A DNA stretch of 48,024 bases, the filler included, from Jimgerdemannia flammicorona (Eukaryota): assembly GCA_003990765.1 (NCBI GenBank). It is 2 parts of 2 records of this genome, joined end to end, with 100 filler letters (N's around TTAATTAATTAA, not from the genome) between each part and the next. Parts side by side here need not be neighbours in the genome. Positions count along the whole stretch, not along the records: positions 1 to 23,964 come from RBNJ01001040.1; 1 more part is not named here. One strand, given 5' to 3'. This document shows positions 3,582 to 33,400 of the stretch, in pieces. Made by a program: the position numbers and the translations under genes. A model generated the notes under the pieces. That model searched no databases, had not been told where the DNA came from, and saw only the letters and a list, made by a program, of their open reading frames with translations. Within the stretch, counting starts at the first letter, position 1. Every line of letters begins with the position of its first letter.

Positions 3582-3583
<2 letters not shown>

Positions 3584-4513: not shown

Positions 4514-4568
<55 letters not shown>

Positions 4569-4760: not shown

Positions 4761-4944
4761 CTTTATATTGTAATAAAATGACAATGCAATCTTATTCGCG
4801 ATGAGAGTGACTCAGTCAAACCACCTATAAACAAGGTATTCCACCCCCATAAAAGGATCTCACTAGGTCCCGTGCTCCTGTAATGCACTCTGAAATTCGC
4901 CAAATTCTCGAACTGGTTCACAAAATATTCCCTTCTCCGACACG

Positions 4945-5560: not shown

Positions 5561-5968
5561 GGGTTGGGTACGCGTCGGTGGCTTTGACGGATCAACGTGG
5601 TCACGTCGCGAGATAATTATATTTGTTGCCACTAAACAAAGATCCACGTATTAAGCGGATGGCCATCCCGCACATGAACCACCACTATGTAATATATACA
5701 AGTCAACACTTCCAAAATGTCTGACAACATTCTACGCGGTTTCTATTTTACAAGTCCCTTCTAGCGGACCCCATACCCTCCAAATGTATGCATCCCACAA
5801 CCGCACGGCGTCTTCCAAGTACATCGCAGCGCCGAGGGTGAGGTTGGTCGGGCGCTTAACAATTTCAGATCGTTTGAGGGGCTTCTTCTTTTTCGATTCC
5901 ATTGGGACATATGTTCCGGCACTTCTCTCTCAGCCCTGCTGAGTGTTAGTCGTTTTCCGAGTATACAA

Positions 5969-5976
5969 TGACGTCA
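5969..5976. promoter_or_regulatory. CRE/ATF-type palindrome TGACGTCA in the divergent promoter, ~60 bp upstream of the NDUFAF3 ATG
   Basis: Exact 8-bp palindrome, with a second half-site TGACGT at ~5991. Function not demonstrated. Confidence 0.3.
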
Positions 5977-6034
5977 CGCCAATACCGTTGTGACGTATTC
6001 TGAATTTCTTGTGTTCTGAATTTCATCATTCACC

Positions 6035-6933
6035 ATGAACATCCTCCGAGCAGTACCCCGTCGTCTCGCACTCTCCGATTCCTTCTTTCCCCGCCTATTC
6101 CATACCACACATAGGTCACTTAAAAACCGTCGCCAACTCCACGAAGAAGGCCCCGACGCTGAAGACGGCCACCAGAAGTCGCGCCCAACCGCCGTCATGA
6201 ACCAGACCTTCCCCGAGGTAGCCCCTACTTCCGACACCATTGTCCCGGCTTCCATGTTCTCCGCCTTCCGCAACATGTTTGAGCAGCACCCGGCCGTCGG
6301 GATTGATGTTGTCACCCAGGATGGCTTCGTGCTCACCGACAACGTGCAGACCAGGGGTCCACTCGTCGTACTTAATGGAGAGGCGTTCCTGTGGGATGTC
6401 CAGCAAGGAAAGGCGGGAAGCGCGGATGCTGGGCCGTTTGAGGGGTGGGACGTAGATGTGTTGAAAGTATTTGAGGTCGTCGATCCGAAGCCAGGTTCGT
6501 GTGCGGTGGGAAAGTAGTGTGATCAATCTGTACCATGCGACATAGCTGTATCAATTTTTCCCACACCATCGCACACACACCTTTCTTCCACAGAAATTGT
6601 CATCTTCGGTACCGGCAAAGCCTTCGCGCCTGTACCGCCCAAACTCCGGGAGTATCTCCACGGTTTGGGCATCCAGGTGGACCAGATGGACACGGTACGT
6701 CGGCATCGTGTGCGACCAATTATATTTTCTTTATTTTGACCCAGACGTGCATTGGTTTTCGGGAGGAAGCCACACCTAACTGATCTCGACCAACTCGAAA
6801 ACCACAAATTTATCACCAGAAAAACGCCTCATCAACCTTCAACGTCCTAATGGAGGAAGGGCGGCGGGTGGCGGCGGCCCTGCTTCCACTGCAGCCAACA
6901 AGCGCAAGGACCGGCGAGCCGACGGCGCGGTGA
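6035..6933 (+). CDS. NDUFAF3: Mitochondrial complex I assembly factor NDUFAF3 (Mth938/DUF498 domain), 3 exons: 6035-6494, 6594-6694, 6820-6933; 224 aa
   Basis: Canonical GT-AG introns, with a CTAAC branch site at 6776-6780. The spliced product contains FEVVDPKPEIVIFGTG...LREYLHGLGIQVDQMDTKNASSTFNVLMEEGRRVAAALLP, typical of the family, and an Arg/Leu/Ser-rich presequence-like N-terminus. Confidence 0.92.
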
Positions 6934-9250: not shown

Positions 9251-9398
9251 GTAGTTACTATTTATACAACTAACTAACTTACTCAAATTTGACTAATTAG
9301 GTAGTCACTATTTGTATAACTAACTAACTTACTCAAATTTGGCTAATATAGATAGTTACTGTTTATACAACTAACTAATTTACTCAAATTTGGCTAAT
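9251..9398. repeat. Three tandem copies of a 50-51 bp unit
   Basis: Unit ~GTAGTTACTATTTATACAACTAACTAACTTACTCAAATTTGGCTAAT starts at 9251, 9301 and 9352. Confidence 0.9.
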
Positions 9399-9399
9399 G

Positions 9400-10260
9400 G
9401 AGCCATCCTCATATAACTTGAAATTCAATATTATATCATCCTTATCTTTCTTTTTATTTTCTTTAGAAAGTCTGGTCAAATTATTTTCTATAATCTCTAT
9501 AGTTATACTGAGATTAGTAAAGAGCTCTGTAGCTAATAAAAGAGAACTTATATACTCCTCCAAAAGGTTGTTAAGATCTTCTTCCCATAAACTAAGTAGT
9601 TTACTCTACTCTGATTCTTAAGATCTCTAATTAATAGTATTATCATCTACAAAGTAGAGTACATATATAGAATTCTGAGAGTAGTGAACTCTTAGAGAGG
9701 GGTCTTAGAACAATACAATCAGATCTTAGAGGAACTAATCTAGATTGTTCTCTAGAATAGAGTTCCAAAAGTCTTGAATCTCATTACTCTTAATTATAAT
9801 AGTAGACTGGGCTTCTTCTATAACCATTTCTTCAAGATGGTCTGTATAGTGGCTTATCAGTTCTTGGATATCTGAAACCTTGATATATTCTAAGTTAGAG
9901 ATAGCCTAGAGTACATATCTGAATATCTGGTAGACTTTCTTAGCCAACTTCTATTTATATCTATTCAGATATATAGTATCTATAATTTCTTAAGAGCTGG
10001 TCTGTAAGAAGTCTTGGCAGAGATGATGTCTCAACTCATATTTTTGCTATATCTAGAATACTTAGTGATAATAGAGATTCTTATTTCTATTTCATAGTAG
10101 TTGAAGATATGTAGTATAGGTCTTTTGTAAAGAGATTCAGACTTGGAGTTCTTCTTGTATACATTCTCATAACCCTTTGATATCAGAGAATATTTGATAT
10201 TAGACTGATGGACTTTGGTGGCTCCTTGATTTTACTATTTAGTAGATAGTAGACATTTTA
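9400..10260 (-). pseudogene. Decayed extra ORF of G1, homologous to the G4 LTR ORF
   Basis: Translates IFSDIKRVMRMYTRRTPSLNL...YELRHHLCQDF...KLAKKVYQIFRYVL*AISNLEYIKVSDIQELISHY...QSTIIIKSNEIQDFWNSILENN. Confidence 0.75.
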
Positions 10261-13200
10261 TTTTGTAATGAGTTTCTTATTTGTGGATAATATCTTGTAC
10301 TCTTTTTTGATGTTTCTTTTATATTCTAAGAGTTTTCTTTTTTGATCCAGAGAGTAGGGTCATCTAATTTAAAGTAGTATACTACTGAGATTACTATAAG
10401 TTACAATAAGTTCAGATGTAAATTATCTTCTGATCAAGATGAGTCATAGTTGAGTCATGATTTGTAACCAGAGGTTTATGAAGTCTAAGTAGTCTCTGAC
10501 TTCTGATGTTATCAGTTTCAAAGATATTATCATATCTGTCTCTTGCAAAATTAGAGCTATTCTTGATAGAGATAATTGTATAGAAATAGCAGGTCTTAGT
10601 TCTTGTTTTTTTTTTAGACTATTGATATATTTATAAGAACTAGCTATTTTTGTCTAAGGTGAGGGCTCTCATTTTTATGGCTAAAGGGGTTCAAATCTCT
10701 CAGAAATGATATTTTCTATAATATGAGGCAATTTCTAGTAGTAACATCTATTATATGGATAGACTTGAGAATGGTTCTAATATTGTTGACTTCTTGAGTT
10801 CTAGATGAAGCATCTATCATTCTCTAATAAAGATGATATAGATGGAGTGAACAGAGTTATTTAAATGTATTTTACTTTTATGAAGTAGTATAGTTTTATA
10901 TAATTGTAGTATATCTTGGTCTTAAGTATAGCTCTATTTAGGGTCTTGAGTTAATAGGTATGGTTTATGAATTTTTGATAAATGAAATAGAGTTCTTTTC
11001 ATTTTGGTTCAAGTTTAGTACTCTAGTTTTCTTCTATAATAATATGGTATACTAAGACTTATTGCTTAATGAGTAGAGGTTCAAGGTCAGCCTTATAGTC
11101 ATAGTACTTCTACTGGTATTCTTATACCTTAGTAATAAATTCTTGTACTTGCTGATATACTTTATATAACCAGATAATCTCTTCAGTAACTCATTTCACC
11201 AAATCTAGCTAGATTGGTTCAGTAGGATCTTACACTTCTTGGCCATATATATACTAAATAGAAAGGAGTCTATTAGGTAGCAGTTACTTTTGAAGTATAG
11301 ATATTAAGTAGAATTGCTAGAAGGTAGATATCATAATTTAATTAATCTCTGATCTTGCTGAGGCCTCACTTGATGGTTTGATTCATTCATTCAGTAAATC
11401 TATTTGCTTATAGGTAATAGGCTATTGTTAGATGTAGTTTGATCTTAAAGTTGGCTATAAAGATCTTCATGGCTTTATTGATAAACTCTCATAATAATTT
11501 TCTTAGAGATATCATAGTGACTGAATATTTTATTATATAAGATCTTAATAATTGTCTGAGCATCAGCAGTCTCAATAGTAAAGACTTCAGGCCATTTTAT
11601 CAGATAATCTTCAATAGTGAGTATATTATTTTCTCTAGCTAGTTACTGACAGAGGGCCAATGATGTCTATTCCTAGTCTTTGAAAGACTCTAGCTGGTGC
11701 TGTAATTAGTATTAGTGGTACTTTATTAGTTGGCTTTTATTGATATCTTTAGTAGATATCATATTATTAAATATATGTTAAAATTTATTTTCTCATTTTT
11801 GGCCACCAATATCTCTTCTTGATTCTTATAATAGTGATTCTAATTTCTCAGTGTATATTCTGATCATAGTTTGTTATGAGTATCTTCTATATTTTATCTT
11901 CTTGTGAGACTCAGGTATATTGGTCTCCTTTTACTCTCTAAAGTTTATTATTATCTTCTTGAAATTTTATGAAATTTTTTTAAATAAATAGCTTATAAGC
12001 TGGCTGAATTTTCTTTTTAAGGCTTCTATAGTATAGACTCTAGATGAGGGCAAGGCACAGTTCTTGATTTATTTAGATAAGTAGAAAGCAGTCATCTCTT
12101 ATAGAGGCTCCTTCTCTTCTTATTGAGTTTGTAGAATTCTTGACAAGGTATCAATGTTAGAGTTCTTGATATCTTTCTTGTAAATAATAGTGAACTGGTA
12201 TTCTTACAGAGATATAATCTATCTGGTAAAGATTCCTAAGGACTCTAGTTTGTTGAATAACTATTATAAAGCTTAGTGATCAGTAATAAGAGCAAATCTC
12301 TTTTGTGTTTAAAGTAATCTATAGCCTATACTACTGTAAGATATTCTAGCTTGATAGCTCTATAGTTTGCTTGTATATCATTAGTAGCTATGCTAGTATA
12401 CTCAATGATATGTTCTTTCTTCTGGTCATCTAGCTGAGATAGAATTGATCCAAGTCTAAGAGTAGAAGCATCAGTTGTCAAGATAAATAGCTTATCAAAA
12501 TCTGATTGCACTAAGATAGGAGCTTCAGTGAGAGCCTTCTTGAATAGATCAAATGACTTCTACTATTCTTCTTTTCAGTAGAATGGTTGGTCTTTCTTGA
12601 AGATATTATATAGTGGAGCTATCTTGTTAGAAAATCTTAGGATGAACTACCAGTAGTAAGATACTAATATGAAGAAGAATAAGACTTTCTTTATAGAGAT
12701 AGAGGTTGGATAGCTTTTGACTTTCTCTATCTTATATGGGTCAGCATAGGTTCTTTGAGCTGAAACTATATATTCTAGATATTTAACTTAGTGTTTTCTA
12801 AAGAAATACTTCTTGGCATTGAGTCTGAGTTCTGAATTTTGGATAATATCAAATACTTCACAGAGGTCTTATAAGTATTGTTCAAATGTTTCTGAGTAGA
12901 TAATTACATTATCTATATATACTAGTACATTTCTTCTAATGAGATCTTGATAGATATAATTCATTATTTGCTGGAATAAGATTGGTATATTGTAGAGTCC
13001 AAATGGTATTTGGAGGTATTTATACTATCCTCATCTAATAATAAAGGCTGTCTTGCAGATATTATTCTTAGTAATAGATATTATTTGGAATTCTTGAAAC
13101 TAATTAGTAGTAGTTATATACTTGGTTTTTCTAAGAATATTGAGAAGGTCATTGATTCTTAGTAGTAAATAAGTATCTTCTATAGTAATCTTATTAAGTT

Positions 13201-15889
13201 TTCTGAAGTCTATAACTAGTCTCCATTCTCCTTTCTTTGGTACTATGTATGATTGCTAGTGAAGTCCAGGGGCTTAATGAGAGTCTAATAACTCTATTTT
13301 ATAGTATTTTATCTATATATTATTATTTAAACTTGATCAGGTGATGTGGTATTCAATAGAGTCATTGTTATATTGGTTTGGCATCTCCTATATATATTGT
13401 ATATTCTCTATATTAATATAGTGAAAAGTTATTATATGTAGTATTAAATATATCTTTATATTTTTCTATCAACTTCTATATCTATTATTACTGATTCTTA
13501 GTTAAAGTTGTCTCAATATCAATAGCTTTGATTACTGAGTCTTACCATTAGTCTCATCAGAGAGAGTTTGCCATTTCTCAAAAATTTAAAAATTTCTTCC
13601 TTGTAGGTACATATCTATCAATAGTTCAAAATATTTCAATATTATTCCTTTGGAAATTATTACTACTTTGAAGTCTAGATTTCAAATAGGAATATGGATT
13701 AGTGACATCTAATTATAGATTTGTTCTTCAGTTAAAAAAAGATAATATTTTTCTTAAAGATTTATTAATAGCTCAAATATCAGATTATTGGTATCTATAG
13801 ATAGGTATATATCAAGGCTTCTTTGTTGATATAGTTGAAGGAGGATATCTTCTCTTACTTGAATAGAATGATAGATATATAGTCTCATTTGATGGAACTA
13901 AGCTACTATTACTAAGTAAACTTTAACAAGTAGTGGTTGAGGAGTTCTATTGGTACTTTCAAATTCTCTATATTCTCTTCTAGTATTGTCTAGTTGATTT
14001 ATCTCTTGAATAGTAGGCTGTGATATCTTGATAAATAGAATTTAACAAATAGTTTTCAAGAGATTGAAGGTTTAGTCTGTTGTAAATAATAACCTTCAGA
14101 GAATCTCAATAATCCTGATCAATGATTCTTCCTTCTACTATAATTCTTTTAACTACTAGAGATGATTTTGATACTAGTTGTCTATAGTGTCCAGATGATA
14201 TAGTAAGTACAATCTTAAGGTCAAAGGTTCTAGTAGTTCTAGGATAGAGCATTGCCTGATAGAGGAGATAGAGGTCATATCCTACTGATTATTCTATTTG
14301 TACAGAGGAGGTTATAATCAAAGTGATAGCAGTTTAACTTAGATAATTAACTGGGTCTTGAGAAATGATACCTCAGTAGTCATTACTACAAAAGAGAACT
14401 CTATATATTCTGGCTTAAATAATGGCTAATATATTTCAGTCTTTGAGTTTCTTGTATAATTGAATTCAGTTCTTCTAAGTAGATCTAAGTCTTCTATAAT
14501 GAAGAAGGCAAGGTTGACTTCTTGTTTACCTTGGTATAGTCAGTAATATCAATAGATGATAATAAGAATTTCTAATAGTAGATCCCAGATAGAGGTCTTG
14601 TTTTTAGCTTTATAGTCTTCTTCATGATTGATTTCTTTATATTTTCAATAGGCCCAGTAAATTCAAAATTTTTGTAAGATGAGATCTCTCCTTTTAACTT
14701 AACTCTTATAGATATTTTCACTAAGGTAGATACTTTGGTACTCACACCAGTAGTAGGTAAAGGTTTTTCCACAATTACAGTATCCTTGTCTGATGAATTT
14801 TTCATTCTGCTGTTTAATCTTCTTATTTATTAGATACCTCTTTTGATATTTATCATAGGTAAGTAGAATGATCTAGAGGACTTGGGTGATGGTATAAGTA
14901 CTGTTATTATTACCTTTGATTGTGAGAGTCTCAAAAGGTTAGTGAGAGAAGATCTTTTGTTCTTCTTTATAGGTCTTCTTGAAAACTTTAGAGATAAATA
15001 GTTATATTCATATAAGGACTGAAACTTATTTTAACTTATCCTTATCTTCAATTACTAGTATTGAAACCTTCTTAAGATTAAGAATTTAACAGTTACTATA
15101 GTTATCTCTTAGTAAGTAGAAATGGTTATAGTGTTTATATATATCTAGGCAGAAGGCTTATATAATTCAGTTTTTCTTCAAAGGTAGTAGTAGTTATATA
15201 AATAGTCCTGTAAATTTACACACTACTTCTTTACTGATAGCCCAATCAATACTTTCTTCTAGGCTTTTAGTATTGATTACTCTAACAAAAAGGTCTTCTT
15301 AACTATCTTTAGAGTCTCTAGGAGTATCAAAATCACTTTCTAGCTCTTGCAGGAAATTTGCTTCACTTTTGTTCTCAGTAGTAGTGAGTATATCTCTATA
15401 TCTTTGTTATTCTATCTTAGAGACTTGACTTGATTTTCTTAATCCTTTTAACTCAATTAGTACCTTGTGCTTTTGTCTATAAAAGGTAAAGACCAGAAGT
15501 TGCTTCTTGATATCTATATTGGCTCCAACTTAGTATAACTAGTTAGTTCTCAGAATTAGATCATAGAAGGTTGCTGGGGTTACAATAGCTTAAGATATAT
15601 TGAGGCAGGCCTTTTCAACTTGAATGGGTATATCTCTGACTAATCCAAGGGGGGTAGATGCTGATCCATCTGCTATAATAACTCTTGCTTTGGTTTCTTC
15701 ATCAATTCTCTATCCAATTCTTTTTAATATTTGCTGAGTGATGATATAAACTACTGCTCTAGTATCAATATGAATTCTGATATTTTCACTATATATTTTT
15801 TTATTAGCTAGTCTTATAGATTGATATTCTTAGCAATAGTATTTATAAACTATATTAATAGTACTAAGCTCTAGTATATACATATATAT

Positions 15890-16070
15890 AATTCCTTACA
15901 AGCAATTTAAAAGATAACAAGATAGTTTAAAGATAAGAAGTTTGAAGACTATAAGACTTTGAGAAGATACTTCAATAAGAACTTACTTATAATAAACTTG
16001 AGTTAGTCTAAGAGATATATCTTGAAGAGAATCTGATATATTTGAAGGACTTAGTAATCACTATGTAACA
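15890..16070 (+). repeat. LTR 3'-end fragment of the G4 family
   Basis: About 180 bp aligns colinearly with 42913-43092 (e.g. AATAAGAACTTACTTATA..AAACTTGAGTTAGTCTAAGAGATATATCTT) and ends in TGTAACA. Confidence 0.8.
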
Positions 16071-16072
16071 TT

Positions 16073-16078
<6 letters not shown>

Positions 16079-16111
<33 letters not shown>

Positions 16112-16160
16112 TTTTTTTTTCTTTTTTTTTTATTTTTTTTCATTTTTTTTTTTTTTTCTT
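16079..16160. repeat. Interrupted poly(T) tract
   Basis: About 80 nt of T with isolated A/C interruptions. Confidence 0.9.
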
Positions 16161-16499
16161 CTTCTATATTTGAGATTTTCTATCATTGAGATTTATCTAT
16201 ATTCATTATTTTTATTATGATTTCTTATGTCTTAAGTATGGATAGATAGTATTCTTTTAGTATATTTATAGTTATTGCTTAGTTATTGCTTAGTTATATT
16301 ATATTCTCTTATATTATATTCATATATATTATCTCATTAAGCAGAAGTATTAAAATTTCTATTATTTTGACATCTTGATAATGTGACTTATATAACTATA
16401 TCATCTTTGAATTATATTACTTGATGTATAAATATGTTCTATCTGGAATAATAAATAATATTTCCTTTTCTCTCTACTCTATATTCTAACTAAGTTATA

Positions 16500-17000
16500 A
16501 TACTTCTCAATGGAAATTACTAATGTCTTGACCATTGTTGACCTTCTTTATAGTCTCACACTCAGATATAGACTCTCAGAAGAACTTATTCCTGACTGAA
16601 ATATAGAATTTATCAATAATATAAGTATAAATTATACTTAAATTTATAAGATCTATCTGAAGCAAATTATTATACTACCTATAAACCAATGGTATAATAG
16701 AATAAATAAATCAGACTATTAAGAAAAGACTGCCAAAGTTAATTCTATCATCTGAGATATGTATCTACTTATCTGAGATCCTATGGGAAATTTGAAATAT
16801 CCCTACTATCTCTATTAAACAAAAGATATTCAAAATAATATTTATTAAGAAAACCAGAACTGCTGATGATAAGAACCTTAGAGACCTTTTCAAAAAGACA
16901 GAATAATTTTATAATTAAGTATAAACTCAGATAATCAAGGCCTAGAAAGGTAAAAGAAGTACTATAACTAGAAGTAGAAGAATTAGATAATTAAGATTAA
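16500..17000 (+). mobile_element. Decayed Gypsy-type integrase fragment
   Basis: RYRLSEELIPD*NIEFINN (cf. RYGxPxxxxSDxGxEF) and YYL*TNGIIE*INQTIK (cf. YHPQTNGxxERxNxTLK). Confidence 0.6.
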
Positions 17001-18612
17001 TGGTCAAGTTCATATTTGGAGAAGTATGATTGAATTTGAATATTATCTTATATATAATATTAAAAGAAACAGTATCTATATAAGAAATATAAATAGATAT
17101 ACTCTGAGAACTTTAATATATATTAATTATCTCAAGATATATATATTTATCTCCTATACAATAATTCAGAAAATTGATCAGCACCTCTAGACTCTTATTC
17201 TCAGTTCTCTTCAAGCTTTGCTAATTCCTCTATTTCAGTTTAAAAAACTATTGACAACTACCTCTAATTTATTCAGATTTATTAAAAGAATCTCACTATA
17301 GCTCAGTAACTCTCAGAAATTTACTAGCTAAAAGTATACTATACTATTAGAGAATAACTACAAGATCTCTCAATCCTTAAGTATATCTATATCAGATATA
17401 TTACAGATCTTATTTGAAGGAATGTTATTATAGCAAATATACTCTATATCATCTATAAGTAAAATATAGAAGTATTAACCCAGGTCTAATTTTATCTTGA
17501 AGATATCTACAGAATGATCCCTATCACTTATCAGAGTATTATCTATCATATTGAGATGCTATTCTTTAAAGTAGAAGAGAAGACTTTAGAATAGAGTAGC
17601 TCTGAAACTAAAAAAGATAATAGAATAAAAACAGATATAGAAAATATTTACTTATATTGAAATGATAACTAAAGAATAGTCTGAGATAGACTATTCTTTA
17701 GTAGAGGCTGATATATATAACAAGCTAGCAGAAAAATATACCAAACTACTATGTAAATTAGTTATTATAATTTAGCTATATATTATATCAGATATACTAA
17801 ATAATATTTAGCTATATATTATATTAAATATATTAGATAACCAGAACTGCTCTACTATACTAACTTGAATAAATAACTCAGATAGTCAAATAAGGATACA
17901 AAGTATGTCTAGCTAGTATATTGTACTAGAATTTGAGATTTATATTTTCAATAAGAGTAGCTAAATATTATTAGAAAATAATAATCTATAATTAGTCATA
18001 TAGTAACTAGCTATAATTATAAATATTCTAGAGAAAAGAGTGAATAAACCTCAGTTTAAAAATCTGAATTCAAAAGTAAAAACAAGTCTGCCTACTTTAC
18101 TTTAAAGGATATATCTGTCAAAAGTTACTTGATTTAAGAAGAATTGTAATACTTAAGAGAAATATCCACTCAAAAGTCACTTTTAGAAGATTGTAAGCTT
18201 TATTCTAAATTCACACTCTGGTCTACTTTCCAATATAAAGAAGAGAATAATCAGAAAATTAAAGTAAAAAGCTAATTAACTAATATACTTAAAAAGAGAA
18301 ATTTATTAACAAACTACTATTAAGAAGTTGAATCTATCTATATAAAACTAGTTTAATATAAGATATGACTGTTTTGTACCTATATTTAGAAGCAAGATTT
18401 TAAATATTTATAACTTTTAAAATTATAATAGTTTTTAAAAAAAAATTTACTAATAATTTTTTTTTTTTTTTTAAAATAAATTTAGATATATTTTTAACAG
18501 AAAAACAATATTTCAAAAAATCATTTTTTTCAAACTTTAATTTGTCTACTAAATGATTTTAAAAGACAATCTTATTTATAGTTAAAGAGATAGTAAATAA
18601 ACTAGTTTATAT

Positions 18613-20889
18613 TGTGACAGTATAGCCAAATTAGGAAGAAGGAAATAGGGAATAGACACTTGATCGCACCCATTCCTAAAGTAGTATAGCCTTATAGTTA
18701 GCAGTCCTCAATTTCGACATTGTCTAAATTCTTAGACATTGTCTAAATTTTAGACATTATCCAAATCGGATACCCTGATTTAGTATAGCATTTAGACATT
18801 GTCCAAATGTTTCGACAAAGTCCAAATGACTCATTTATTACTTAGCCACCCTCTCATAGCTAGCAAACTTGTATAAATAACCCAGTATCTTCGAGTGAAT
18901 AAACCTCAGATCGAAATAGTTCAAAGCAAAGAGATAGCAAAGGAACTAGTAAGCCTGTGGGCAGATATACTTCGAACTCACCCACCCTCCCCTGCAACTT
19001 CAAGAGACTCTGCGAGAGTCAGAACAGTCAAGTTTTCAAGATACAGAAATCTGACATACTTTCAAGAGTAAGCGCTGCTACATTACAACTTAGTGCCCAT
19101 TGGCTGGTGATTCAAGACAAATTCCTCACTTTCAAGCTGAACAATGAACAACCACTACTATTCGAACAACCATACAAACCAAGCCCCAATACCCAGACAA
19201 GATGGATATGAGACCACCAGTATTCCATGGATATACCTCAGATGAATCAATCATCACCTTCATTGACGATTTCGAGCAGTATGCTGCTGTAAGGACTCTG
19301 ACAGCAGCATAGCAAGTAGCCCTCATGCCCTTCAGCCTACGAGGCCCTGCCAGAGCAGCATTCATAGCTGCAACCCATGCAGGAAATGATGCCAATGCTG
19401 TACTGACAGCACAGAAGACCTGGCTCCGAAATACATATTACACAGATGAGATCAAGCAAGCCCTGAAGGATTAGCTCAATACAACATACCAAGGAATGAG
19501 CGAGGATCCAAACATATTCTATACCAGAATTGATATCAGATAATCCTTGCAGATTATGCTGCTGCTATCCGAGATCAAATAGCTGAAGTAACCTTCATGA
19601 AAGGAGTCCATCCAGAAATAGCCATGGCCATCTGCTCATCACCAGTGATTCTGGATCTGCCACAGAAGGTCACCTATGCTCAGCGATACTGAATAGCCAG
19701 ACACCCACAAGACCATATAATGGAAAGAGTTACAGGAGTCAGAATCGAGGCACCCAAGGCAACCAGTGTGATCCTCACCATAATGATCAATCGAAACACA
19801 CCTCAGCCAAAAGCTACAGAGCAGCAAAAGAACAGTGACCCTATGGAGGAACTTGCCAAAAGGTTTGCTGAAATAACTGCCCACCTGGGAGATGTGGTAA
19901 AGGAAATCTGAAGAAGAGATTGCTGCCCTGTTCAGAAGTTTGCTGCCACCTCAGACAAGAAGAAAGGTACCTACTACAGCTGTGGAGAAGAAGGCCACTA
20001 CTCCTATGAATTAGTGAGTGAAACCAAATGCAAGGCTCAACCAAGCAATACTACATGAAACAAGGAGCAGGCCAATACAATCACCTTTGAAGAAATTGGA
20101 GAATCCGATGAAGAGGAATGGGAGGCCTATCCTGCTCAGACCACCAAGAAGGATGTTTGCAAAGAACCCTACAAGAGACCACCAGGAAGACCCAAGAAGA
20201 ACCCAGTAGAAAAGTGGATGGAAACTGCCACAGAAAGCGAAGCCAAAGAGATGGACCAAGATATCAAGCTGGAGCAAGCAGTTCAAGATATCATCTGAGG
20301 GACCACTCCAGCCAGTGAAGGAGAAAAAGAAAAGAAGCTTCGCAAGACCAAGACCTTCAAGTATAATATCTTCAAGGATCTCAGTCAACAAAAGGTCAAT
20401 GCAACCTTTGGTCAGCTCACAGAAATCCCAATATTCAGACAGCAAATGAGGTTTGGACTTGCTGAAATAACTAAGGAACAAGGATGGAAGATAACTGAGG
20501 CCAATAATATTCAAGAGGACTCAGGAGAAGAAAGTGAGAATTATTGCAAAACCTCTGCTTATGCAACATGCCAAATCAAAGATAGAACCTTTGAAGCCAT
20601 CATTGATATGGGAGCAGGAGGATGTCTCCTCAGTAAGAAGACAGCAGACTGCCTAGGTTGGGATATAGAAGAAGCAACCAAGCTAGTATTCATCACAGCT
20701 GATGGCACAAGAGCCACACCTCTGGGAAAGATCTGAGATGTTCCCATTAAGATCGGAGGAGCAACAATCCTAGTAAATATAATCGTAACCAATGCCACCA
20801 ACTATGACATTCTCATCAGCAATCAATGGCTTCATAAAGCCAAGGCAGTAATCGATCTCAATGCCCAGAAGATGCAAATCACCTACCAG
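18613..20889 (+). mobile_element. G2: 5' part of a Ty3/Gypsy element (LTR 18613-19087, gag, zinc knuckle, protease), interrupted by G3
   Basis: TGTGA...TTACA LTR with TATAAATA and AATAAA. Gag MDMRPPVFHG...FIDDFEQYA starts at 19202, followed by knuckle relic YSCGEEGHYSYE (~19975) and protease FEAIIDMGAGG (ORF 20446-20736). Confidence 0.85.
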
Positions 20890-23800
20890 TGTAAGAGGGT
20901 TACTTTTTAGGGTAACCATTACGTAGTTCTGGAAAGGTTTTCTGGATATTCTGGATGTTCTGGAAGACCGTTTTCTTATGGTCAAGATCAATTTCGTATG
21001 GAGTACATCCTCTACGCTTATTGATTTCAAGATCGGGTTGACGTCTCAACCAAAGTCCTTTTCTGGACTAGTTCTGGATGTTCAGGATTTTCCGTATTTC
21101 AGGAAGTTCAAGAAACTAAGACCAGCTTAGTTGAATTGGCATATTGCTGCAGACAATACCCAATTAGGAAATTTCGTGATGGGGTTAGGAGTAGGACCTA
21201 ACAGGGAGCAGATTTACTTAAGAGTGGTTTGTGGGTTATGGAATAGGTTTATTTGCTATTTATGATATTGCTATACTAGGAGTATTTGTGTGAAGGGATA
21301 TTGTGGGGAAGTGCTCAGGAGTTGTGTTCGGATTGTTCAAGTCTGAGATTCTGAGGTCTGGGAGAGGGGGTATTTATACTAGTGAGGGGCTATCTGGACT
21401 ATGCTAAATATAGATGTAGCACTAAGTGCCTTGCTGAGTCGGAATGCAGTCACGTAGTATAAGTATGATCTGACATGTCAAGAGATCGTCTGACTGCTGA
21501 GTCAGTTCACAGTCACGTCATATAAGGCTAATCTATCTATACTATGACTGCTAGACTATTTATAGGTTTAGACACTGTCTGGGTAGTCTTTGATGACATC
21601 ACCATCGATTGCATCATCTCTGATGAAGTAGTCGTCTAGGAGGAGTGGTTCGCGGATTACTTCTCCTTGTTCACTGAGGTAGTAATATATTGAAACTTCA
21701 TCTCCATCCCACAGGATAGCATCGTCTGTTTCATATGCTGGATAAGGTGTTGGTGGGCAAAGGATGGGTGTATTGTCTTCACTTTCATTGGATTCACTAT
21801 CTGCATACCTTCTATAGGTTATGGCACTATGAGTTGTAGGGTTATAGTATGCTGGTGGCTGTGGTTCGTGTCACTCATACTCGGGTAGTGGAGTGGTTGG
21901 TTCGATCTCGAGGGTTGTCTGAAGGTACAGGTTGTGTTCTCCAGTCTCTTCATTATAATTGAAGTAATCGGGGGTGAATGCGGGTTGGTATTCGTGCCAG
22001 TGATCATTGCCCCAATAAGTCTTGTATGCAGTTATGAACTGTTGTAAGTTCATTGGCAAGGTTGGTAGAGTGATCAGGGTTGGCAGAGATCCTTGGCTAG
22101 AGGTCATGTCGGCGTCAGAGGGATCATTGTCTTCTGCTTCATCTTCATCGAAGTGGATTATATCGTAGACGTCCTTCATGACATATCCAACTTGAGGCAT
22201 TTGCAGGATATGGTCGTCAGGGTGCGGGAAGGTTCTGTCTGTGGTCTGGACATATTCGAGGTACTTGTGGTTGATTTCTTGTATCATGTCATCGATTTGG
22301 CCATAGGACAGGGTAGCAACCATTTCGCTGGTAGTAACTCAGAGGTGGGAAATAAAGGTGTTGTACTCATAGAAGAGTTCTTGATGTTTGTGGGCGATGA
22401 GCTTCTGGTGTTGAGACATCTGGGTAATATCTGTATCATGGTGGTGTTCGACCATGTCTTCCAGGAGGTGGCCAATCTGGTAGTAGCTTGAGATTTGTCC
22501 GATTCGGTGGGCCTCGCTAAGCATGTTCAGGGCGTTCCATCAGGCTTCCACGAAGTAGAGGGGTGCCAGGCTATGGATATTCATGAGGGGCAGAGGGGGT
22601 GTGGCTCGGTTGACAATGGCATTCCAAATGTCAGTGCGGATATGGTTGTAGATCTCGGTGGTCATATTTGTGTGTTTGGAAGTTGTGGTTATTGTTTGTT
22701 TTGGTTTTCTGATTTGATGCGTCTCGGTGCTTGGTATATATGCATTTAGTCCTGATTGGTAAGGTTCCGTTTGTGTAGATCTTGTGTTCCGTGACTTCGT
22801 ATTGACTCAGCTTTATGTGCTGTGACTTCAGTTTGACTCAACTTCGTGATCAAGCAGGTGATTTCCAGGTTTATTCAGAGGTCGCATGTGATTTCAGTGG
22901 CTTGTTCAGAGGGTGACGTGTAATTTCGGTGGCTTGGAGGTTGTGTGCTTACAACTCTCCCCTTCTTAGCTTTCGATGTCCTTGTTGGGGCCTTCTAATT
23001 TGTTCTAGTGTTGTTATACTATTTAGGAGGTCAAAAGTCTGGTAAGGTCCATTTTTCTCAGAAAGTGACATGCTCATAGTACAGTTGCCTAACATGTTGG
23101 ATTTACACGTTAAAGGGTCATATGTTTAATGCCATACACCGGAAGTGATTCTGACGTCATTCACTGCTGGAGAATTTCCTCTAAGGAATCTTCTTAAATG
23201 TCTATACCTCGTTTCCCACCAGTAGTATGGGAAGAATAGGCTTGCTTTCAGTTTTGCTATTTTTCCAGGGATTCAGTAGTCTTGTCTAGTTTTGCTGAGT
23301 TCTCGACTTAGTTCATGATAGTTATAATGTTCAGGAGGGTAATATATAGTATGTATAGATAGGTGCAGAGTTTTTGGTTCTAGTTGTTCAAGGAATCATA
23401 TTCCTGAACTAGGTCAGTAGCATTCTGGAGATTGGTCTTGGGTTCCCAGATTGCATCATGGATCGAGTAACCTTTCCATTTGACAAGGTACTTGAGATGG
23501 TTCTTGTTGCCACATTTGTTGAGGATTTGTTCAACTTCATACTCTTCTTGGTCATTAATAATGACAGGTGCAGGTGGTTTGGTGGTCCGATTTGGAAATA
23601 GCTCATCATTATTGTTATTGTATTGCTTGAGACATTGAACATTAAAGACTGGGTGAATCTTAATGGTATCTGGTAGTGTCAGTTTGTAGGAGGTTGGAGA
23701 GACTCATGCAATGACTTCGAATGGTCCAATGAACTTGCTGTTCAGCTTTGTAGATGGTCTGTGCTTGAGGTTGTCAACTCGGTATCCTCTGATGTCCAGT

Positions 23801-23964
23801 AGAACTTTTTCTCCAATATCAAAGGTTTCTTCTCGGCGGTGTTGGTTAACATACTGTGACTGTTGTTCTTGAGCTCGTGATAAATTCTCAATTGCGATCT
23901 GGCTTAGATTGCGCATTCGGAGTAGGAATTCTTCAACAGCTTCGACTGTGGAGGGTTCTTCAGT
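20890..23964 (-). mobile_element. G3: 3' part of a chromodomain-bearing Ty3/Gypsy element with a 2064-bp 3' LTR (22953-20890)
   Basis: Integrase C-terminus KLNSKFIGPFEVI (23704-23916) and chromodomain EEYEVEQIL...YLVKWKGYSIHDAIWEP (~23420-23550). PPT AAGAAGGGGAGAG lies immediately before TGTAAG at 22953. The other end at 20890 is the inverted TGTAAG, exactly where G2 protease coding stops. Confidence 0.85.
21568..22665 (-). pseudogene. 365-codon extra ORF of unknown function inside the G3 LTR, broken only by three TGA codons
   Basis: One frame runs from ATG 22665 to TAA 21570-21568 and joins track ORFs 22339-22524 and 21871-22323. Internal stops are at 22542, 22341 and 21873, all TGA, compatible with CGA>TGA. 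Confidence 0.8.
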
Positions 23965-24064
23965 NNNNNNNNNNNNNNNNNNNNNNNNNNNNNNNNNNNN
24001 NNNNNNNNTTAATTAATTAANNNNNNNNNNNNNNNNNNNNNNNNNNNNNNNNNNNNNNNNNNNN
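23965..24064. other. Artificial assembly linker N44-TTAATTAATTAA-N44
   Basis: Symmetric 100-nt spacer containing the six-frame stop oligo used to join contigs. Confidence 0.97.
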
Positions 24065-25390: not shown

Positions 25391-27437
25391 CAAGATGGTC
25401 TATGTCATAGTGGATGATATATGAGCTACCTCCCTTGGCAAAATCCAAGAAGTCCCCATCAAAATAGAAGAAGCTACTACCCCAGTAGATGTGATTGTTA
25501 CAAGCACCACCAACTATGACATCCTCATTGACAACCAATAACTTCACAAGACCAAGGCCATCATTGACCTCAATGCCCAGAAAATGCAGATCAACTATAG
25601 AGGAAGAAAGGTATAAGTTTCTATCAATATCCACAAAGGAGTCCTATTAGACATAAAGAAAGGAGATGAAGAGGATATAGAAGTCTTCATATACTCAGTG
25701 AACAAGAATAAGAATAAGAACAAGACACCCAAGCTTACAGATGAGCAGTAGTACAACAAAATCATTGATGGCTATACCCCTCAAGAAAGATGCCCCTATG
25801 GTACTAGGATGTACTGCTCTGAACACCTGAATGACTGCTAGTCCTGTATCAGTGAAGTCAGAAAAATCTGTCAACAGAAACATAAGTAAGAAGCTGCTGA
25901 AGTAAAAAGGAAAGCTGAAGAAGATGACTAGCCCCCCAAGCTTCAAGCTGATAGTGATAATAAGAAAGAACAAGAATCAGACATCACCCTCAAGGTCAAG
26001 AAGTTTCATCCCCAAAGCCAAGATCCCAGAATATAAGACTGAAGGAGCCATAGGAATGGACCTTACCAGCATTTAAGATACTACTCTCAAACCACAGACC
26101 ACTACTCTACTTGGAACTGGAATTGGAGTCAAGTTGCCAGAGAACCATGCCAGAATTATCAAGACTAGGAGCAGTCTGGCCAAAAGCAAAATCTCAGTTG
26201 AAGGAGAAGTAATTGACCCTGATTACACTGGTGAGATCTTCCTCATAGTCAGGAATCACAACCCTACCATCTCATTTGAAGTCAAGAAATATAACAGAAT
26301 TGGCCAGATGCTGATCTATAAAATTAAGAAGCCTAAGATCACTGAAGTCATCAAACTCATCAAGACCAAGAGAGAAGAACAAGGCTTTAGATCTACTGGA
26401 AGAGAAGCCTATGCTACTACCAAGATTACTGAACTTGAGCATAAGAAAGACAGGGATCAGAATAAGTACACATATACTATTGGAGAAAACTTTTCCCTAG
26501 AAGAACAACTTTTCAAGATCCTGCACCAGAATGAAGGAGTACTTACTACAGACTTCAGGGATATCCATAATCAAGAACCCAAGTACTACTATAAAGTTAA
26601 TACTGGTGATACCAAGTCCATCTACCAGAAAGCCAGACCTATACCACTTGCCTATAGAGAATGGCTGTAAGCAGAACTCAAGGAAATGAAAGAAGCTAAA
26701 ATCATCAAGCAAGCTATTAGTCTCTGGGCTTCACCCATTGTCCTTGCTCTGAAGAAAGAAAGTAAGTCTGGAGAGTTTGCACCAAGACTCTGCATTAACT
26801 ATAGGAAGCTCAATATAATTACCAAGAAGGATAGACAGCTCTTGCCAAATATTCAAGAAATCCTTACCACTCTTGGAAGCAAAACTAAATACTACACTAC
26901 CTTGGATCTATTCTCAGACTTCTATCAGATTGGTCTCACTCAAGATGCCAGTGAGAAATCAGCCTTCATCACACCTGATGTCACCTATATCTACCTATGA
27001 ATGCTATTTGGAATGTGCAATGCCCCAGCAAGTTTTCAGTGAATGATGAATAGAGTCTTCAGTAATGAGATTGGAAAATAGCTCTTTATCTATATTGATG
27101 ATGTGATCATCTTTAGCAATACTGCACAGGAACATGTCAACCACATATAGCTAGCTCTCAAGAAGCTCAAGGAGTATGGCCTCTACATCAAGCCCAAGAA
27201 ATACAAGTTTGCAGCTCAAGAAATTGTCTACCTAGGACACCTCATCAACCAGACCAGAATTCACACAGACTCCACAAAGATTGAGGCTATTGTAGCCTAC
27301 CTGAGACTCAAAACAACCATAGAAGTCTATGTCTTCCTTGGACTGGTCAGCTACTACAGAAGATTCATCAAAGGATACTCTAACATTGCAGCACCTATCT
27401 ATGAGCTACTGAAGAAGGAAATCAAATTCAAATAGAC

Positions 27438-30400
27438 TGTAACATTTTAGCATAGTTTATTTCTTTTCTTCATCTTTCTTCAATATTCTATGACCTTCTG
27501 GTATTTTCCAAATGCTTAGAAATCCTTTTTTGGCACTGAGCATCCTCTGGTACTTATTTAGCTAGTCACTGATTGTTCTGGAAACTTATAGAACTTTATT
27601 TGTCATCATTTGTCATCTTTGCTAAGAACTTTCCTCTTAGCATTTTCCTTTGATTTCTCAGATCCTTCCAGATTCTTCTTTCAGATCTTATATAAATATC
27701 CCCTTTGTTCTTATGAATAAAGTCTCAAAATATTTTCTTTCAGAAATCCTTCGAGAATACTTAAGTCTTTAAGTATCTCTTTGAGCTACTTAGGACTACC
27801 AGAACTAGTCGCTTCCTTATTTAGAAACTAGAACTATTATACTTGGTAGCAGCAGTTAAGTTACACCTAGCCTTATCAAGACACCTCTCAAGATATCAGT
27901 CACAACACTATGGAGGACAATGGGTAGAACCCTTCATACAGTATCTATGGTCTGGGTAATACTTCATACTATCAGCAAGAAGAAGAAGAACAGCAAAACC
28001 CTACTCAGTCAAACAGGGCCATCGAGAGTCTCTTGCAGACTGCACTAGCTCAGATTGCTCAACTTCAAGAATGCATAGAAAGAAAGGAAAGCAAGGCCTC
28101 CACTCATACCTCTGTATCTTCACCAACATCAATATATCCAACAGCAGTCACTATTAAGCCTCAGAAGCCTGACACCTTTGATGGTCAAAGAGGAGGACTA
28201 TCTACTGATGCTTGGCTTTTCCAATTGGAGCAATATGGAGAACTGACCAATTTGGAAGAAGCAACACTAGTCCAATTTGCCGCCATACTCCTCCGAGGGA
28301 ATACTGCAATCTGGTGGCAAAATCATGTCCAGAATACCAGATTCTCTAGCCAAATCAAGATCTGGGGTGAATTCTCTGATGCTATTCAAGGCCAATTCAA
28401 ACCAGTCAATAGCACCAAGGCCATGTGAGACCATCTGGCAAATGTCAAACAACTCAAGTCTGTGCAAGCATACAATACACGATTCCTGTTAATTCTGCTA
28501 GAACTACTACATGTCACTGAAGACAAGAAGGTCAACAAGTACATCTGAGGCCTGAAAGATCAAATCTGAGTTTGTGTTGAACTAGAAGAACCCAAGGACC
28601 TAGATACAGCAATGAAAATTGCTGATAGGTTTGATGTTATTACCTATGGTCATCGCTTTGAACAGAAGAGACCACCTTTCAACAACAACAACTACAGAAG
28701 GGAGGAACCCAAAGTCAGAACTGTTGGACCTGCCCCTATAGACCATAGACCTAGACACCATTGATAAGAACAAGAAAGGCAAGCTTACACCCAAGGAAAA
28801 GGAGTGCCTCAAGAAGGCTGGAGCCTGCTTCTTTTGCCATCAGCCTGGTCACATTGCAACCAAATGTCCCAAGAAAACTACCAAACCAAAGAGGATTCTG
28901 GTCCTGTCCAAAGACACCCAAGGTCAACTAGTTGAATAAGAAGTTATACTCAATTTCATACAAGTCAACCCCAAGGCTCAGATCCCTCAAGTACAATCAG
29001 AAGGAGCTATTGGTTTAGACCTTCAAGCAGGACAACAAGTCACTATTCCAGCATATGAGAGAAGGCTCATTCCAACTGGCCTTTCAGTCAAAATCCCCAA
29101 GGAACATTATGCAAGAATTGCACCAAGATCTGGCCTCAGTTTCAAGCACTCATTGGATGTTGGTGCTGGAGTTATTGACCCTGACTTCTGAGGTGAAATG
29201 CAAGTCCTGCTAGTCAACCACAAGAACCAATCATACACTGTCAATGAAGGTGACAGAATTGCACAGCTCATTCTGGAGCGAGCCACCCTACCAGTCATCC
29301 AACCAAGTAAGATCAGAAATGCTTTGGCAGTACTGACAAAGTTGCAAGCATAGCTGAGAACCAAGCCAATTCAATACTCATTTTCAAAGGTCTAGTCAAG
29401 GGACAAGAGCTAGATATTCTCATAGATAGTGGAGCTGTTGGGAACTTCATCAACAAGAACCTCATCAACAAGCTCAAGATTCTCACCAAACCAGTTAGCA
29501 AGAATGGTGGAGTTGTCACGGCAGATGGCACCACCTTACCAATTGACTCAATTGCCACTAAACTTCCCCTCAAGATCCAGAAGTACTGGAAATGTTTAGA
29601 TTTTGAGGTAGCACCACTAGGAGATCATAACCTGATCCTAGGCAAACCCTGGCTTATACGGCACAACCCTCAGATTGATTGGACCAAGAATGAAGTCACC
29701 TTGATTTAGGATGGAGCCAATATTACCATCAAGCCAGACAAGACTCAGATGAGAACCCCAATTGCTACCCTTTTGGCAATTCAGTTCAAGAAGGCCCTCA
29801 AGAAAGCTACCTGTGCCTTTGTAGCACTGATTCAATCAAAGAAAGAAGACAAGAAGCTATCAATTAGTGAAAGCATCAAGTTACTGCTAAACAAGTACAA
29901 GAATGTCTTCCTGGACAAACTACCAGACCTACCACCATTAAGAGACCATAACCACAAAATCAAGTTGGTACCTGATGCAGCTATACCTAAGAAGAAAATG
30001 TACTACATGTCCCCACTTGAAATTGAAGCAGTCAAGAAGGAACTCAATGAACTCATTGAGCAAGGAGCCATTCAACCAAGCAAGTCACCCTTTGGCTCCC
30101 CAGTCCTATTTGTCAAGAAAAAGGATGATACTCTGCAAATATGCATAGACTATCAAGCACTCAACAAGATCACAGTCAAGAACCATTATCCACTACTGCT
30201 CATAGATCAAATCTTTGATGCTCTCAAGAATGCAAAGTACTTCACTAAGATTGATCTCACCTCTGGGTATCACCAAATTCTAATCAAGCCAGAAGACATA
30301 CCCAAGACTGCCTTCATAACACTCTTTGGACTCTACAAATTCCTAGTCATGGTCTTTGGTCTCACCAATACACCAGCAATCTTTCAAGATCTCATGCAAA

Positions 30401-33400
30401 CTGTCTTCAAGGACCAGCTCTATATCTTTATACTTGTATATATTGATGACATCTTGATCTTCAGTAGTACTGAAGAAGAACACCTCAAGTACATTGAACA
30501 AGTCCTCAAGATCCTCCACAAGAACAAGCTCTACCCAAAGCTCAAGAAATGTGAATTTTTCAAAGATCAAGTCGAATACCTTGGACATATTGTATCAGCC
30601 AAAGGAATTCAAGTAGACCCAAGGAAAATACAAGCCATTGAACAGTGGCCTGTACTAGCAAACCTCACTGAACTCAGGTCCTTCCTTGGTCTGGCTGGAT
30701 ACTACTATCGATTTGTCAAGAACTTCTCTGGCATCACAGAATCTTTGACAAACCTCCTGTGAAAGAAACCTAACTCTAACCTCTATGTCTCCTATATCTG
30801 GGATGCTTTCTGTCAACAAGCTTTTCAAGAACTCAAGAACTGCCTGACCCATGCACCTGTTCTTAGAAATATGGACCCAAACTTGAAGTTTACGGTCACT
30901 ACAGATGCATCTAACTTTGCCATTGGTTCAGTCATTTCTCAAGATAATGATCAAGGACACTGACCTATTGTCTTTGAGTTAAGAAAATTGTCTCCAGCAG
31001 AACAAAAGCTGACTACTCATGAAAAGGAACTTCTGGCAATCATGCATGCCCTCAAGATCTAGTGATACTATCTAGAAGGAGTTGAGTTCAATGTGATCAC
31101 CAATCACAGGTCCCTTCAGTACATCAACACTCAACTAACCCTTTCTCGCCAATAAGCCAAGTGGAGCCAACTACTTCAGACCTTTACCCCAAACATCATC
31201 TATAAGCCTGGCAAAACTCTAGTTGTATCAGATACACTTTTAAGGAGACCTGACCTTGCTGCAATTTTACAAGTCACCATGGCACCTGAATTCCTCAACC
31301 AGATCAAGAAGGCATATGAACAAGACTCTCTGGTTCTACAAAGGAACACTAAGGAATTCAAGAAAAAGTACACCATCAAGGACAATCTCATGTACTATCA
31401 AGATAAAGTATATATTTCTGCCAACTCTGAACTATGGTACAAGATTCTTCACAAACATTATGACTCCCCACTAGCTGGCCATCTTGGAACTGAGAAGACC
31501 ATCAAGAATATTCAACGAGACTACTACTGACCAAACATACTCAAGGAAATCAAGGAGTATGTCCAAAGTTGCAATCTTTGCCAAAGAAACAAGTCAAGCA
31601 ACCAAGCACCTGCCGGTCTTCTGCAACCTCTGCTAATTCCAACCAAGAGGTTCAAACAAGTCACAATAGACTTCATTGTGCAACTCCTATGAACCAAAAC
31701 AGGCTATGATGCTATTGTTGTGTTTGTGGACTATCTCACCAAGATTACAATTGCCAAGCCAACCACAACCAATGCCACTGCCCCAGAAATTGCAAGAATC
31801 TTCTTCAAGACTGTCTTCCACCATTATGAACTTCCCTGAGTAATTATCAACAACTGTGACCCCAAGTTCACAAGTCACTTCTGGTAAGCACTCTTCAAGA
31901 TCCTTGGAATCCAAATTGCTATGTCCATTACCTTTTATCCTCAAACTGATAGACAGACAGAGCAAATGAACAGAATACTTGAACAAATGCTCAGAAACTA
32001 TATGTCTTATGAGTGAGATGATTGGGATCACTATCTGACCTATGCCAAGTTTATCTACAATAATGCTAACTAATTATCAACTGGCCTTTTCCCATTTCAG
32101 CTACTTCATGGTCAAAAACCTGAGACCCCTGCAAGCCTAGTCCAATTCTAGCAATCCAGTCACACACAAGTCCCCACAGCTCAGAATCTTATCAACAAAA
32201 TGGATTCCCTTCTCAAGATTGTTACTATGAACCTACAAAAGGCTCAGCAATATCAAGCTAAGTATGCAGATAAGAAGTAGTGAGATGTCATATACAACAT
32301 TGGTAATATGGTTCTACTCAAAGCCGACAACATCAAGGCTCAATCTCAAGTCAACTGCCAGTTAGCCAAATTTCAGCCCAAGTACCTTGGACCCTTTGAA
32401 ATCACCAAGCAAGTCTCTACCTGATCTTACCATCTCAACTTGCCAACAACCATGTGTATATACCCAGTATTTCATGTGTCACAACTCAAGGCCTAGAACC
32501 AGTCACCCCCATACCCTGGCCAAATTCTAACACCATCAGCACCAGTCATAGTTAAAGACCACATCGAGTATGAAGTCGAGAAAATCTTAGATAAATATGT
32601 CTGATACTGTCGCACAGAATACCTAGTCAAGTAGATGGGTTACCCTAAATATGATACCATCTGGGAACCTGCTGCCAATCTCAAGAACTCCCAAGATCTC
32701 ATCCAAGAGTTCAAGCAAAAAGGAACTCATTAACTGCTCATGAGGTTCTCCCTTTAGATAGTAGATAACCTACTGTGCTGATCAGGCACATTATGCATCA
32801 GGGCTCTCTAAGGAATACAGTATCAGAAATAAAAGATATAGGAGAACCCTACAAATTCTGCAACCAACAAGGTTCAAACCAGTTCTCATCTGATCAAGAT
32901 GATACTTTGGCCCTCACCTTATACAAGGATGGCCAATCCTTGCCAATGAGTTGGTATATTTAATTTGAAGTTTCTTTTAGTCTTATTGTTTATTATGTGT
33001 AACTTTGAGAATTCAACAAGGACATTGATTCTTAAGAAGGGAGAGATGTAATATTTTAGCATAGTTTATTTCTTTTCTTTGTCTTTCTTCAATATTCTAT
33101 GATCTTCTGGTACTTTCTGAATGTTTAGAAATCCTTTCTTGGTGCTGAGCATCCTCTAGTACTTATTTAGCTAGTCACTGATTGTCCTGGAAACTTGTAG
33201 AACTTTATTTGTCATCATTTGTCATCTTTGCCAAGAACTTTCCTCTTGGCATTTTCCTTTGATTTCTCAGATCCTTTCAGATCCTTCTTTCAGATCTTGT
33301 ATAAATATCCCCTTTGTTTCCATAAATAAAATCTCAGAATATTTTCTCTCAGAAATCCTTTGAGAACACTTGAGTCCTTAAGTATCTCTTTGAGCTACTT

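Follow-up and report, generated by a model that had tools for sequence, protein, structure and literature searches.

A 365-codon gene that probably lies within the U3 region of a long Ty3/Gypsy terminal repeat in Jimgerdemannia flammicorona

We analyzed a 48,024-nucleotide stretch of DNA (the window) from the Jimgerdemannia flammicorona assembly GCA_003990765.1, which consists of a nest of eukaryotic retrotransposons within very AT-rich DNA. Positions 20890 to 22953 of the window, read on the minus strand, probably represent the complete 3′ long terminal repeat (LTR) of a chromodomain-bearing Ty3/Gypsy element, here called G3, which interrupts the protease of the older Gypsy element G2 and probably carries a 365-codon gene in its long U3 (unique 3′) region. 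The G+C content (GC) was 22-31% over 8-19 kb and 36-50% over most elements of the window. The window is made of two contigs joined by a six-frame-stop linker (N44-TTAATTAATTAA-N44) at 23965-24064, so that the sequences to the left and right of the linker need not adjoin in the genome; G3 is truncated inside its integrase at 23964, just before the linker.

An earlier reading of the sequence (the original prediction) had proposed that the whole 2.06-kb unit is a Gypsy LTR, and this held when the termini, the polypurine tract, the integrase and chromodomain, and independent contig breaks at both ends were considered. The predicted polypurine tract, AAGAAGGGGAGAG (22967-22955, minus strand; 13 nt, all purine), is present and is separated by one T from the LTR start, TGTAAG at 22953-22948. 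The inverted terminus expected 2064 bp away, at the break in the G2 protease, was found as CTTACA at 20895-20890, giving a perfect 6-bp terminal inverted repeat of the TG...CA type and an LTR of 2064 bp from end to end. Upstream of the LTR, on the same strand, lies the 3′ end of the G3 internal region (22954-23964), with the C-terminus of the integrase (SH3_Tf2-1) and a chromodomain. Pfam searches of the G3 pol product returned Chromo at E 2e-15 and SH3_Tf2-1 at E 1e-6 and 1.8e-4, the two SH3_Tf2-1 matches lying below the Pfam cut-off. The pol frame ends at a stop codon at 23383-23385, carries an in-frame TGA at 23704-23706, and is separated from the polypurine tract by ~415 bp of non-coding sequence. 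At the opposite end, the G2 aspartyl protease (20299-20889, plus strand; Pfam Asp_protease_2, E 1e-5) is broken by the G3 LTR at 20889/20890; its frame ends mid-domain at 20889 ('...AVIDLNAQKMQITYQ'), and a paralogous element at 25392-25601 continues beyond the point equivalent to this break.

Sequencing runs sharing part of the stretch comprised 20 rows from 14 studies, mostly soil metagenomes, with a best word share of 0.37 and none reaching half; no RNA run was found among these 20 rows. Contigs from four runs (X1, X2, X3, and X14) were aligned to 19500-23960 at 85% likeness or more (4477, 526, 635, and 478 contigs in the four runs), and the contig evidence used here is that listed: 32 of 6126 pieces, 24 of 196 loose ends, and seven joints. 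G2-like contigs of X1, X2, and X3 pass 20886/20887 uninterrupted into their own continuation and represent empty sites. Three X14 contigs exit at 20890 into differing AT-rich flanks, and one X2 contig exits at the same base, among the loose ends listed, into a 13-mer resembling a primer-binding site. Read on the strand of G3, these 13 letters recur at 27842-27854, where they follow the ~400-bp LTR of G1, another element in the window, and the X2 exit was therefore read as a primer-binding-site context. We take the 13-mer to be of the initiator-tRNA type; no tRNA gene was found in the window. At the other end of the LTR, position 22953 is fused in one X2 contig to a second LTR copy at ~21260-21265, with no polypurine tract at the joint. 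Three of the five intervening letters match 21260-21264 and the other two are transitions, which is how an LTR start nested inside another LTR copy would look, and we read it as such. Judged from these contigs, both ends of the G3 LTR are the ends of a mobile unit in independent contexts.

Inside the LTR, the minus strand carries an open reading frame (ORF) of 365 codons followed by a TAA stop (21568-22665), with the ATG at 22665, 288 bp downstream of the first base of the LTR, and the TAA at 21570-21568. The original prediction had described it as a sense frame interrupted only by three TGA codons, and translation gave exactly this: the window holds a decayed copy with in-frame TGA codons at 22542-22540, 22341-22339, and 21873-21871, which, when read through, encodes the protein analyzed here (P0001). 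Three stops are far fewer than expected by composition. In 5000 dinucleotide shuffles, the best of three frames contained 16.4 stops on average and at least 6, and none of the shuffles (0/5000) had three or fewer. Guanine is distributed unevenly over codon positions 1, 2, and 3 (0.28, 0.10, and 0.13), that is, with a codon-position bias.

Two relatives of the ORF protein were found among ~15 billion proteins, both encoded by short environmental contigs. P0003 (128 aa) is 89% identical over residues 1-128, begins at the same methionine, and has arginine at both TGA positions within its span. P0002 (247 aa) shows 65% identity and 83% positives over residues 115-365, ends at the same stop position, has glutamine at the third TGA, and differs in length by only two gaps of two codons each. 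Of its 83 replacements, 44 are BLOSUM-positive (0.53), a share that was 0.29-0.32 in neutral simulations started from the window codons; 0.53 was reached in 0/400 simulations at each of three transition biases (0/1200 overall). On this comparison, the P0002 replacements are far more conservative than neutral drift would make them, and the sequence evidence supports the view that the ORF belongs to a real, conserved protein family. Near-invariant blocks between P0001 and P0002 lie around residues 146-159, 226-251, and 304-311.

Among the 12 indel rows listed for the contigs (of 13), the 1098-bp ORF contains only one compensating +1/-1 pair, in a single X14 contig, and 9 of the 12 fall in the 717-bp stretch that separates the ORF from pol. 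The segment 20890-21567 has no listed indel either, so the contrast between the ORF and its flank is weaker than it appears. Two further database matches, P0004 (E 6.5e-5) and P0005 (E 3.6e-4), were rejected as relatives, being long repetitive proteins with short low-complexity matches. Searches for related DNA loci in metagenome contigs gave 92 pattern matches with the P0003 query and 74 with the family alignment, none of them confirmed; of 29 pattern matches of P0002 in genome contigs none was confirmed, nor was any match of P0001 in viral contigs. A tblastn search for paralogues of P0001-P0003 found none in the window. Among the listed contigs, one from X14 shows that, in another organism, the end of a G1 LTR interrupts a G3-type ORF at 22029. 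An X14 joint from 21858 to 22071 omits 212 nt with the ends CT..AG; it was tried as a splice junction and rejected, having no intron-like ends on either strand and a length that is not a multiple of three, and it is read as a deletion variant.

The ORF is tentatively assigned to U3 because the polypurine tract precedes it and the TATA box of the LTR comes after it. The original prediction had placed a TATA-like box ~70 bp upstream of the ORF and an LTR-type TATA box at ~21368-21379 downstream of it, and both were recovered at these places, in agreement with a U3 placement by motifs. The downstream box, GTATAAATACCC at 21379-21368 (with GTATAAATACC at 21379-21369), lies 189 bp beyond the end of the ORF; TGACGT (21520-21515) and TGACTCA (21504-21498) lie between them, and the segment 21368-21567 (minus strand) is, from its position, the candidate main promoter of the LTR. 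An AATAAA on the minus strand at 21248-21253 is a candidate LTR poly(A) signal within R, the repeat region. With these landmarks, U3 would extend from about 22953 to 21340 (~1.6 kb, unusually long), and the whole ORF would be inside it. The 5′ part of U3 (22803-22936, minus strand) contains a 32-bp tandem repeat (two copies, 22874-22936) and TGAGTCA at 22840-22834 and 22809-22803. A putative promoter of the ORF itself occupies 22735-22759 on the minus strand, with CCAAT at 22759-22755 and TATATA at 22740-22735, 70-95 bp upstream of the ATG. The leader after TATATA is A/C-rich, and in the 100 nt before the start codon there is just one more ATG (22745-22743), which is out of frame and upstream of TATATA.

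The protein is strongly acidic (pI 4.3), with 63 Asp and Glu residues against 14 Lys and Arg, and contains 29 Tyr and 27 Pro. Helix is predicted for residues 1-141, and the models, at very low confidence, leave most of the remainder without structure; this acidic C-terminal part has many Pro and Tyr residues and is probably disordered. The best 19-residue Kyte-Doolittle mean is 0.86, and no transmembrane segment was found. Prediction, composition, and hydropathy thus agree with the original prediction, which had described a probably helical N-terminal half, an acidic, Pro-rich C-terminal half, and no membrane-spanning segment. The near-invariant blocks suggest, from the alignment, short binding motifs in the disordered tail. 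In database searches, Pfam returned no family for P0001, P0002, or P0003 at E up to 1, nor for the four pieces of the ORF at E up to 0.01; the best E value in a PDB sequence profile search was 0.18; and the ESM Atlas contained no usable match for P0002 (pLDDT, the predicted local distance difference test score, of its own model 0.39) and only unspecific rows at 0.90-0.93 for P0003. AlphaFold2 models had a pLDDT of 31.9 for the whole protein (three-row alignment) and 51.3 for P0003 alone. Foldseek with the P0003 model gave no match at E up to 0.001 (best E 0.9), a result that we regard as uninformative.

Several observations weigh against a single 2064-bp LTR with its own gene. The primer-binding-site context and the joint at 22953 were seen in one contig each; an element with this LTR at both ends was not seen among the related contigs, which are short (longest piece listed, 711 nt), and the window holds no second copy of the 2064 bp; the U3/R border is placed by consensus motifs alone. 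The protein has only two relatives in the databases, whose openness is in part a matter of ascertainment since gene callers report open frames only, and it lacks a relative in Pfam, PDB, or the Atlas and yields poor structural models. Furthermore, contig depth in X1, X2, and X3 falls 2- to 4-fold at ~21586, just past the ORF stop, and one X14 contig diverges at 21622, so that LTR variants or sister families lacking the ORF block are probable and the block may have been gained later. A true LTR restricted to ~20890-21590, with the ORF segment either belonging to the internal region as a third ORF downstream of pol or being an element of its own nested in this copy, would account for the depth step. 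In X1, summed depth, which is not copy number and serves as a rough pointer, was 100-240 over G2, 130-470 over the G3 internal region, 675-1430 over the ORF and the 5′ end of the LTR, and 1900-3150 over 20990-21585. However, the same profile shows the ORF part deeper than the G3 internal sequence and the 5′ end of the LTR (22778-22926) matching the ORF and not the higher 3′ part. The only polypurine tract is that at 22967-22955, the TG terminus next to it mirrors the other end as an exact inverted repeat, and an independent contig begins the unit precisely at 22953 with no such tract; near 21570-21620 there is neither a purine tract nor a TG...CA pair, and no well-supported pair of break-points inside the LTR occurs among the loose ends listed. 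We therefore consider a short LTR very unlikely.

A somewhat less improbable, though still unlikely, alternative accepts the LTR and takes the ORF as a mere passenger, a host or foreign coding piece transduced into U3 and drifting there with no role. The relatives that seem to lack the block (the depth step and the divergence at 21622), the orphan protein with no confident fold, and the broken window copy would all fit. A drifting passenger is, however, hard to reconcile with P0002, which keeps the frame and the stop position with two 2-codon gaps only and has strongly conservative replacements, or with the start context, CCAAT and TATA motifs, and clean leader of the ORF; nor was a host-type homologue found among the ~15 billion proteins. 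That there is no gene at all, and that the frame arose by chance on an A+C-rich strand whose shortage of T and G lowers the frequency of stop codons, we regard as scarcely credible: the ORF strand does have this composition, but no dinucleotide shuffle matched the low stop count in any frame, two independent relatives are open, and the codon-position bias and the conservative replacements in the 65% relative point the other way. The reading that we favor, as a probable one, is that 20890-22953 is the complete 3′ LTR of G3 and that its long U3 contains a protein-coding gene. In a farther-reaching version, to which we give a little less than even chances, a fungus-like lineage of chromodomain Gypsy elements, common in soil metagenomes, would keep a conserved, self-promoted gene wholly in U3, so that every LTR (5′, 3′, or solo) would be an autonomous copy of the gene.

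Two further features of the contig data concern the same element. Over 20990-21287, X14 depth was 2286-6956, compared with 15-190 in adjoining bins and approximately zero over the G3 internal sequence; the peak could stem from transcripts of R and U5 (unique 5′), or from a segment highly repeated in that organism. The use of X14 as RNA evidence was considered, as transcription beginning shortly after the TATA box would explain the peak and a loose end at 21332, which we take to be adapter-like; that this small run is RNA is no more than a guess, and it was not counted. Within the chromodomain region of G3, 23492-23498 is the best-supported break among the loose ends listed (5+2 contigs in X1 and 2+1 in X3), and it probably marks a variant that is frequent among family members or a site where they carry an insertion.

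How such a gene would work can be outlined from the mechanism of reverse transcription. Reverse transcription would copy everything from the polypurine tract to the end of R to the 5′ end of the element, and since the ORF is located between these two points, it would be doubled in each cycle and retained in solo LTRs. A second promoter in U3 (CCAAT, TATATA) would start an mRNA of ~1.5 kb ending at the LTR poly(A) signal (21253-21248). That this internal promoter is the route of expression, with each LTR acting as a self-contained transcription unit, is the likeliest course to us, though at somewhat less than even chances; alternatively, the ORF could be expressed from a spliced subgenomic RNA, in the manner of retroviral 3′ genes. 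The product, with its helical head and acidic tail, might be a trans-acting accessory factor that works through protein-protein contacts on the transcription or silencing of the element itself, in the manner of an acidic transactivator or an anti-silencing protein, which we offer as our best guess, if a rather unlikely one. If the farther-reaching version is true, a genome would make more of the product the more LTRs it holds, irrespective of how many elements are intact, and the gene would be a built-in copy-number-dependent transactivator, anti-silencing factor, or self-restraint factor.

The window copies of both the ORF and the element are dead, with three TGA codons in the ORF and one in pol. 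This decay fits CpG-to-TpG change, because two of the ORF TGA codons correspond to Arg in P0003 and CpG is depleted in the older elements of the window; on the sequence, the three ORF stops look like private CpG decay. The ratio of observed to expected CpG was 0.58 in the G3 LTR, 0.21 in G2, 0.09 in G1, and 1.14 in an intact Copia element, declining with apparent element age, which points to a very strong CpG-directed mutation in the host. An AT-rich region of 10.5 kb (8000-18500; 27% GC) contains no CpG at all despite 1334 C and 1516 G.

LTRs are usually regarded as control sequence with no coding role, and annotation pipelines mask them and do not look for genes there. To our knowledge, the layout of a gene within an LTR is otherwise known mainly from a few retroviruses. 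In mouse mammary tumor virus (MMTV), the sag gene, a superantigen ORF, lies in U3 of the LTR, and the Sag protein is a type II membrane protein. The G3 arrangement resembles sag in having a sense ORF of ~320-365 codons in an LTR of more than 1 kb, in the part assigned to U3, so that each round of reverse transcription would duplicate it. It differs in that sag belongs to a betaretrovirus, whereas G3 is a chromodomain Ty3/Gypsy element in which a separate U3 promoter would be the likely route. The MMTV ORF was the only match for an LTR ORF in our literature search (available part of PMC9412291). The G3 protein matched no Pfam family at E up to 1, lacks a membrane anchor, and gave no sign of belonging to the Sag family. 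The tas and bet genes of foamy viruses are accessory ORFs at the 3′ end that run into U3, are served by a second promoter, and include an acidic transactivator acting on the virus's own LTR. The likeness of a 3′ accessory gene in U3, a putative second promoter, and an acidic product makes this, by analogy, our favored working model; the foamy virus ORFs, however, begin upstream of the LTR and overlap it, whereas the G3 ORF is wholly inside the LTR and bears no sequence relation to them.

In LTR retrotransposons, additional ORFs belong to the internal region, where they either precede gag or separate pol from the 3′ LTR (PMC7264820, PMC3485330, as far as the available text of each goes). The original prediction had named much the same usual places, before gag and from pol to the polypurine tract, in line with the accessible portion of PMC7264820, which reviews such ORFs in plants. 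One such additional ORF is ORF0 of Retrosat2 (accessible portion of PMC3485330). The G3 ORF shares with these a family-specific orphan protein, an occurrence in long-LTR Gypsy elements, and an evolution faster than that of pol (PMC7264820 and PMC3485330, in the parts at hand), but differs in its location, which is not in the internal region but downstream of the polypurine tract, inside the LTR. It has no hydrophobic segment and follows the polypurine tract, so the features of an env-like ORF3 were not found. In Cassandra elements, which are terminal-repeat retrotransposons in miniature (TRIMs), each LTR carries a 5S RNA gene. Retrozymes, according to the available sections of PMC11722881 and PMC12029980, have hammerhead ribozymes in their LTRs. 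Both cases resemble G3 in that an independent functional unit is present in the LTR, twice per element and once in a solo LTR; they differ in that the units are RNA genes or ribozymes in non-autonomous plant elements, whereas G3, apparently an autonomous element of the chromovirus type, has a protein frame. The literature searched describes no LTR retrotransposon with a protein-coding ORF inside its LTR, a scope that leaves out subscription journals and Repbase and hence is no proof of absence. The available parts of PMC7264820, PMC5408684, PMC3485330, PMC4299795, PMC11302176, and PMC12193657 likewise contain no protein ORF inside a retrotransposon LTR.

Several other elements were observed in the window. 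A Ty1/Copia gag-pol frame (44559-48023, minus strand), with zf-CCHC, integrase, and RVT_2 domains, stays open for at least 1154 codons and runs off the end of the window; with its undepleted CpG, this element is probably young and possibly active. A Gypsy-type pol has a dUTPase domain (26077-26670, plus strand; E 3e-19) between protease and reverse transcriptase, and the element that bears it is interrupted at 27438 by another element. The G1 Gypsy element is present in two inverted copies, 27438-33380 (plus strand) and 34769-40685 (minus strand), which are ~91-92% alike, lie 1.4 kb apart, and have a short LTR. Uninterrupted poly(A)/poly(T) runs of 30-70 nt occur beside repeated flanks at 3509-3580, 4517-4566, and 16079-16110 and may be tails of non-LTR retroelements.

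If the G3 ORF is indeed a gene of the LTR, the U3 gene arrangement of a few retroviruses would extend to the Metaviridae, and solo LTRs could stay coding after the rest of the element is lost. The family would then offer a simple natural system in which the dose of an accessory factor follows the number of LTRs. As an orphan, the protein may be a lead to a new means by which elements cope with transcription or silencing in a host whose genome shows strong CpG decay.

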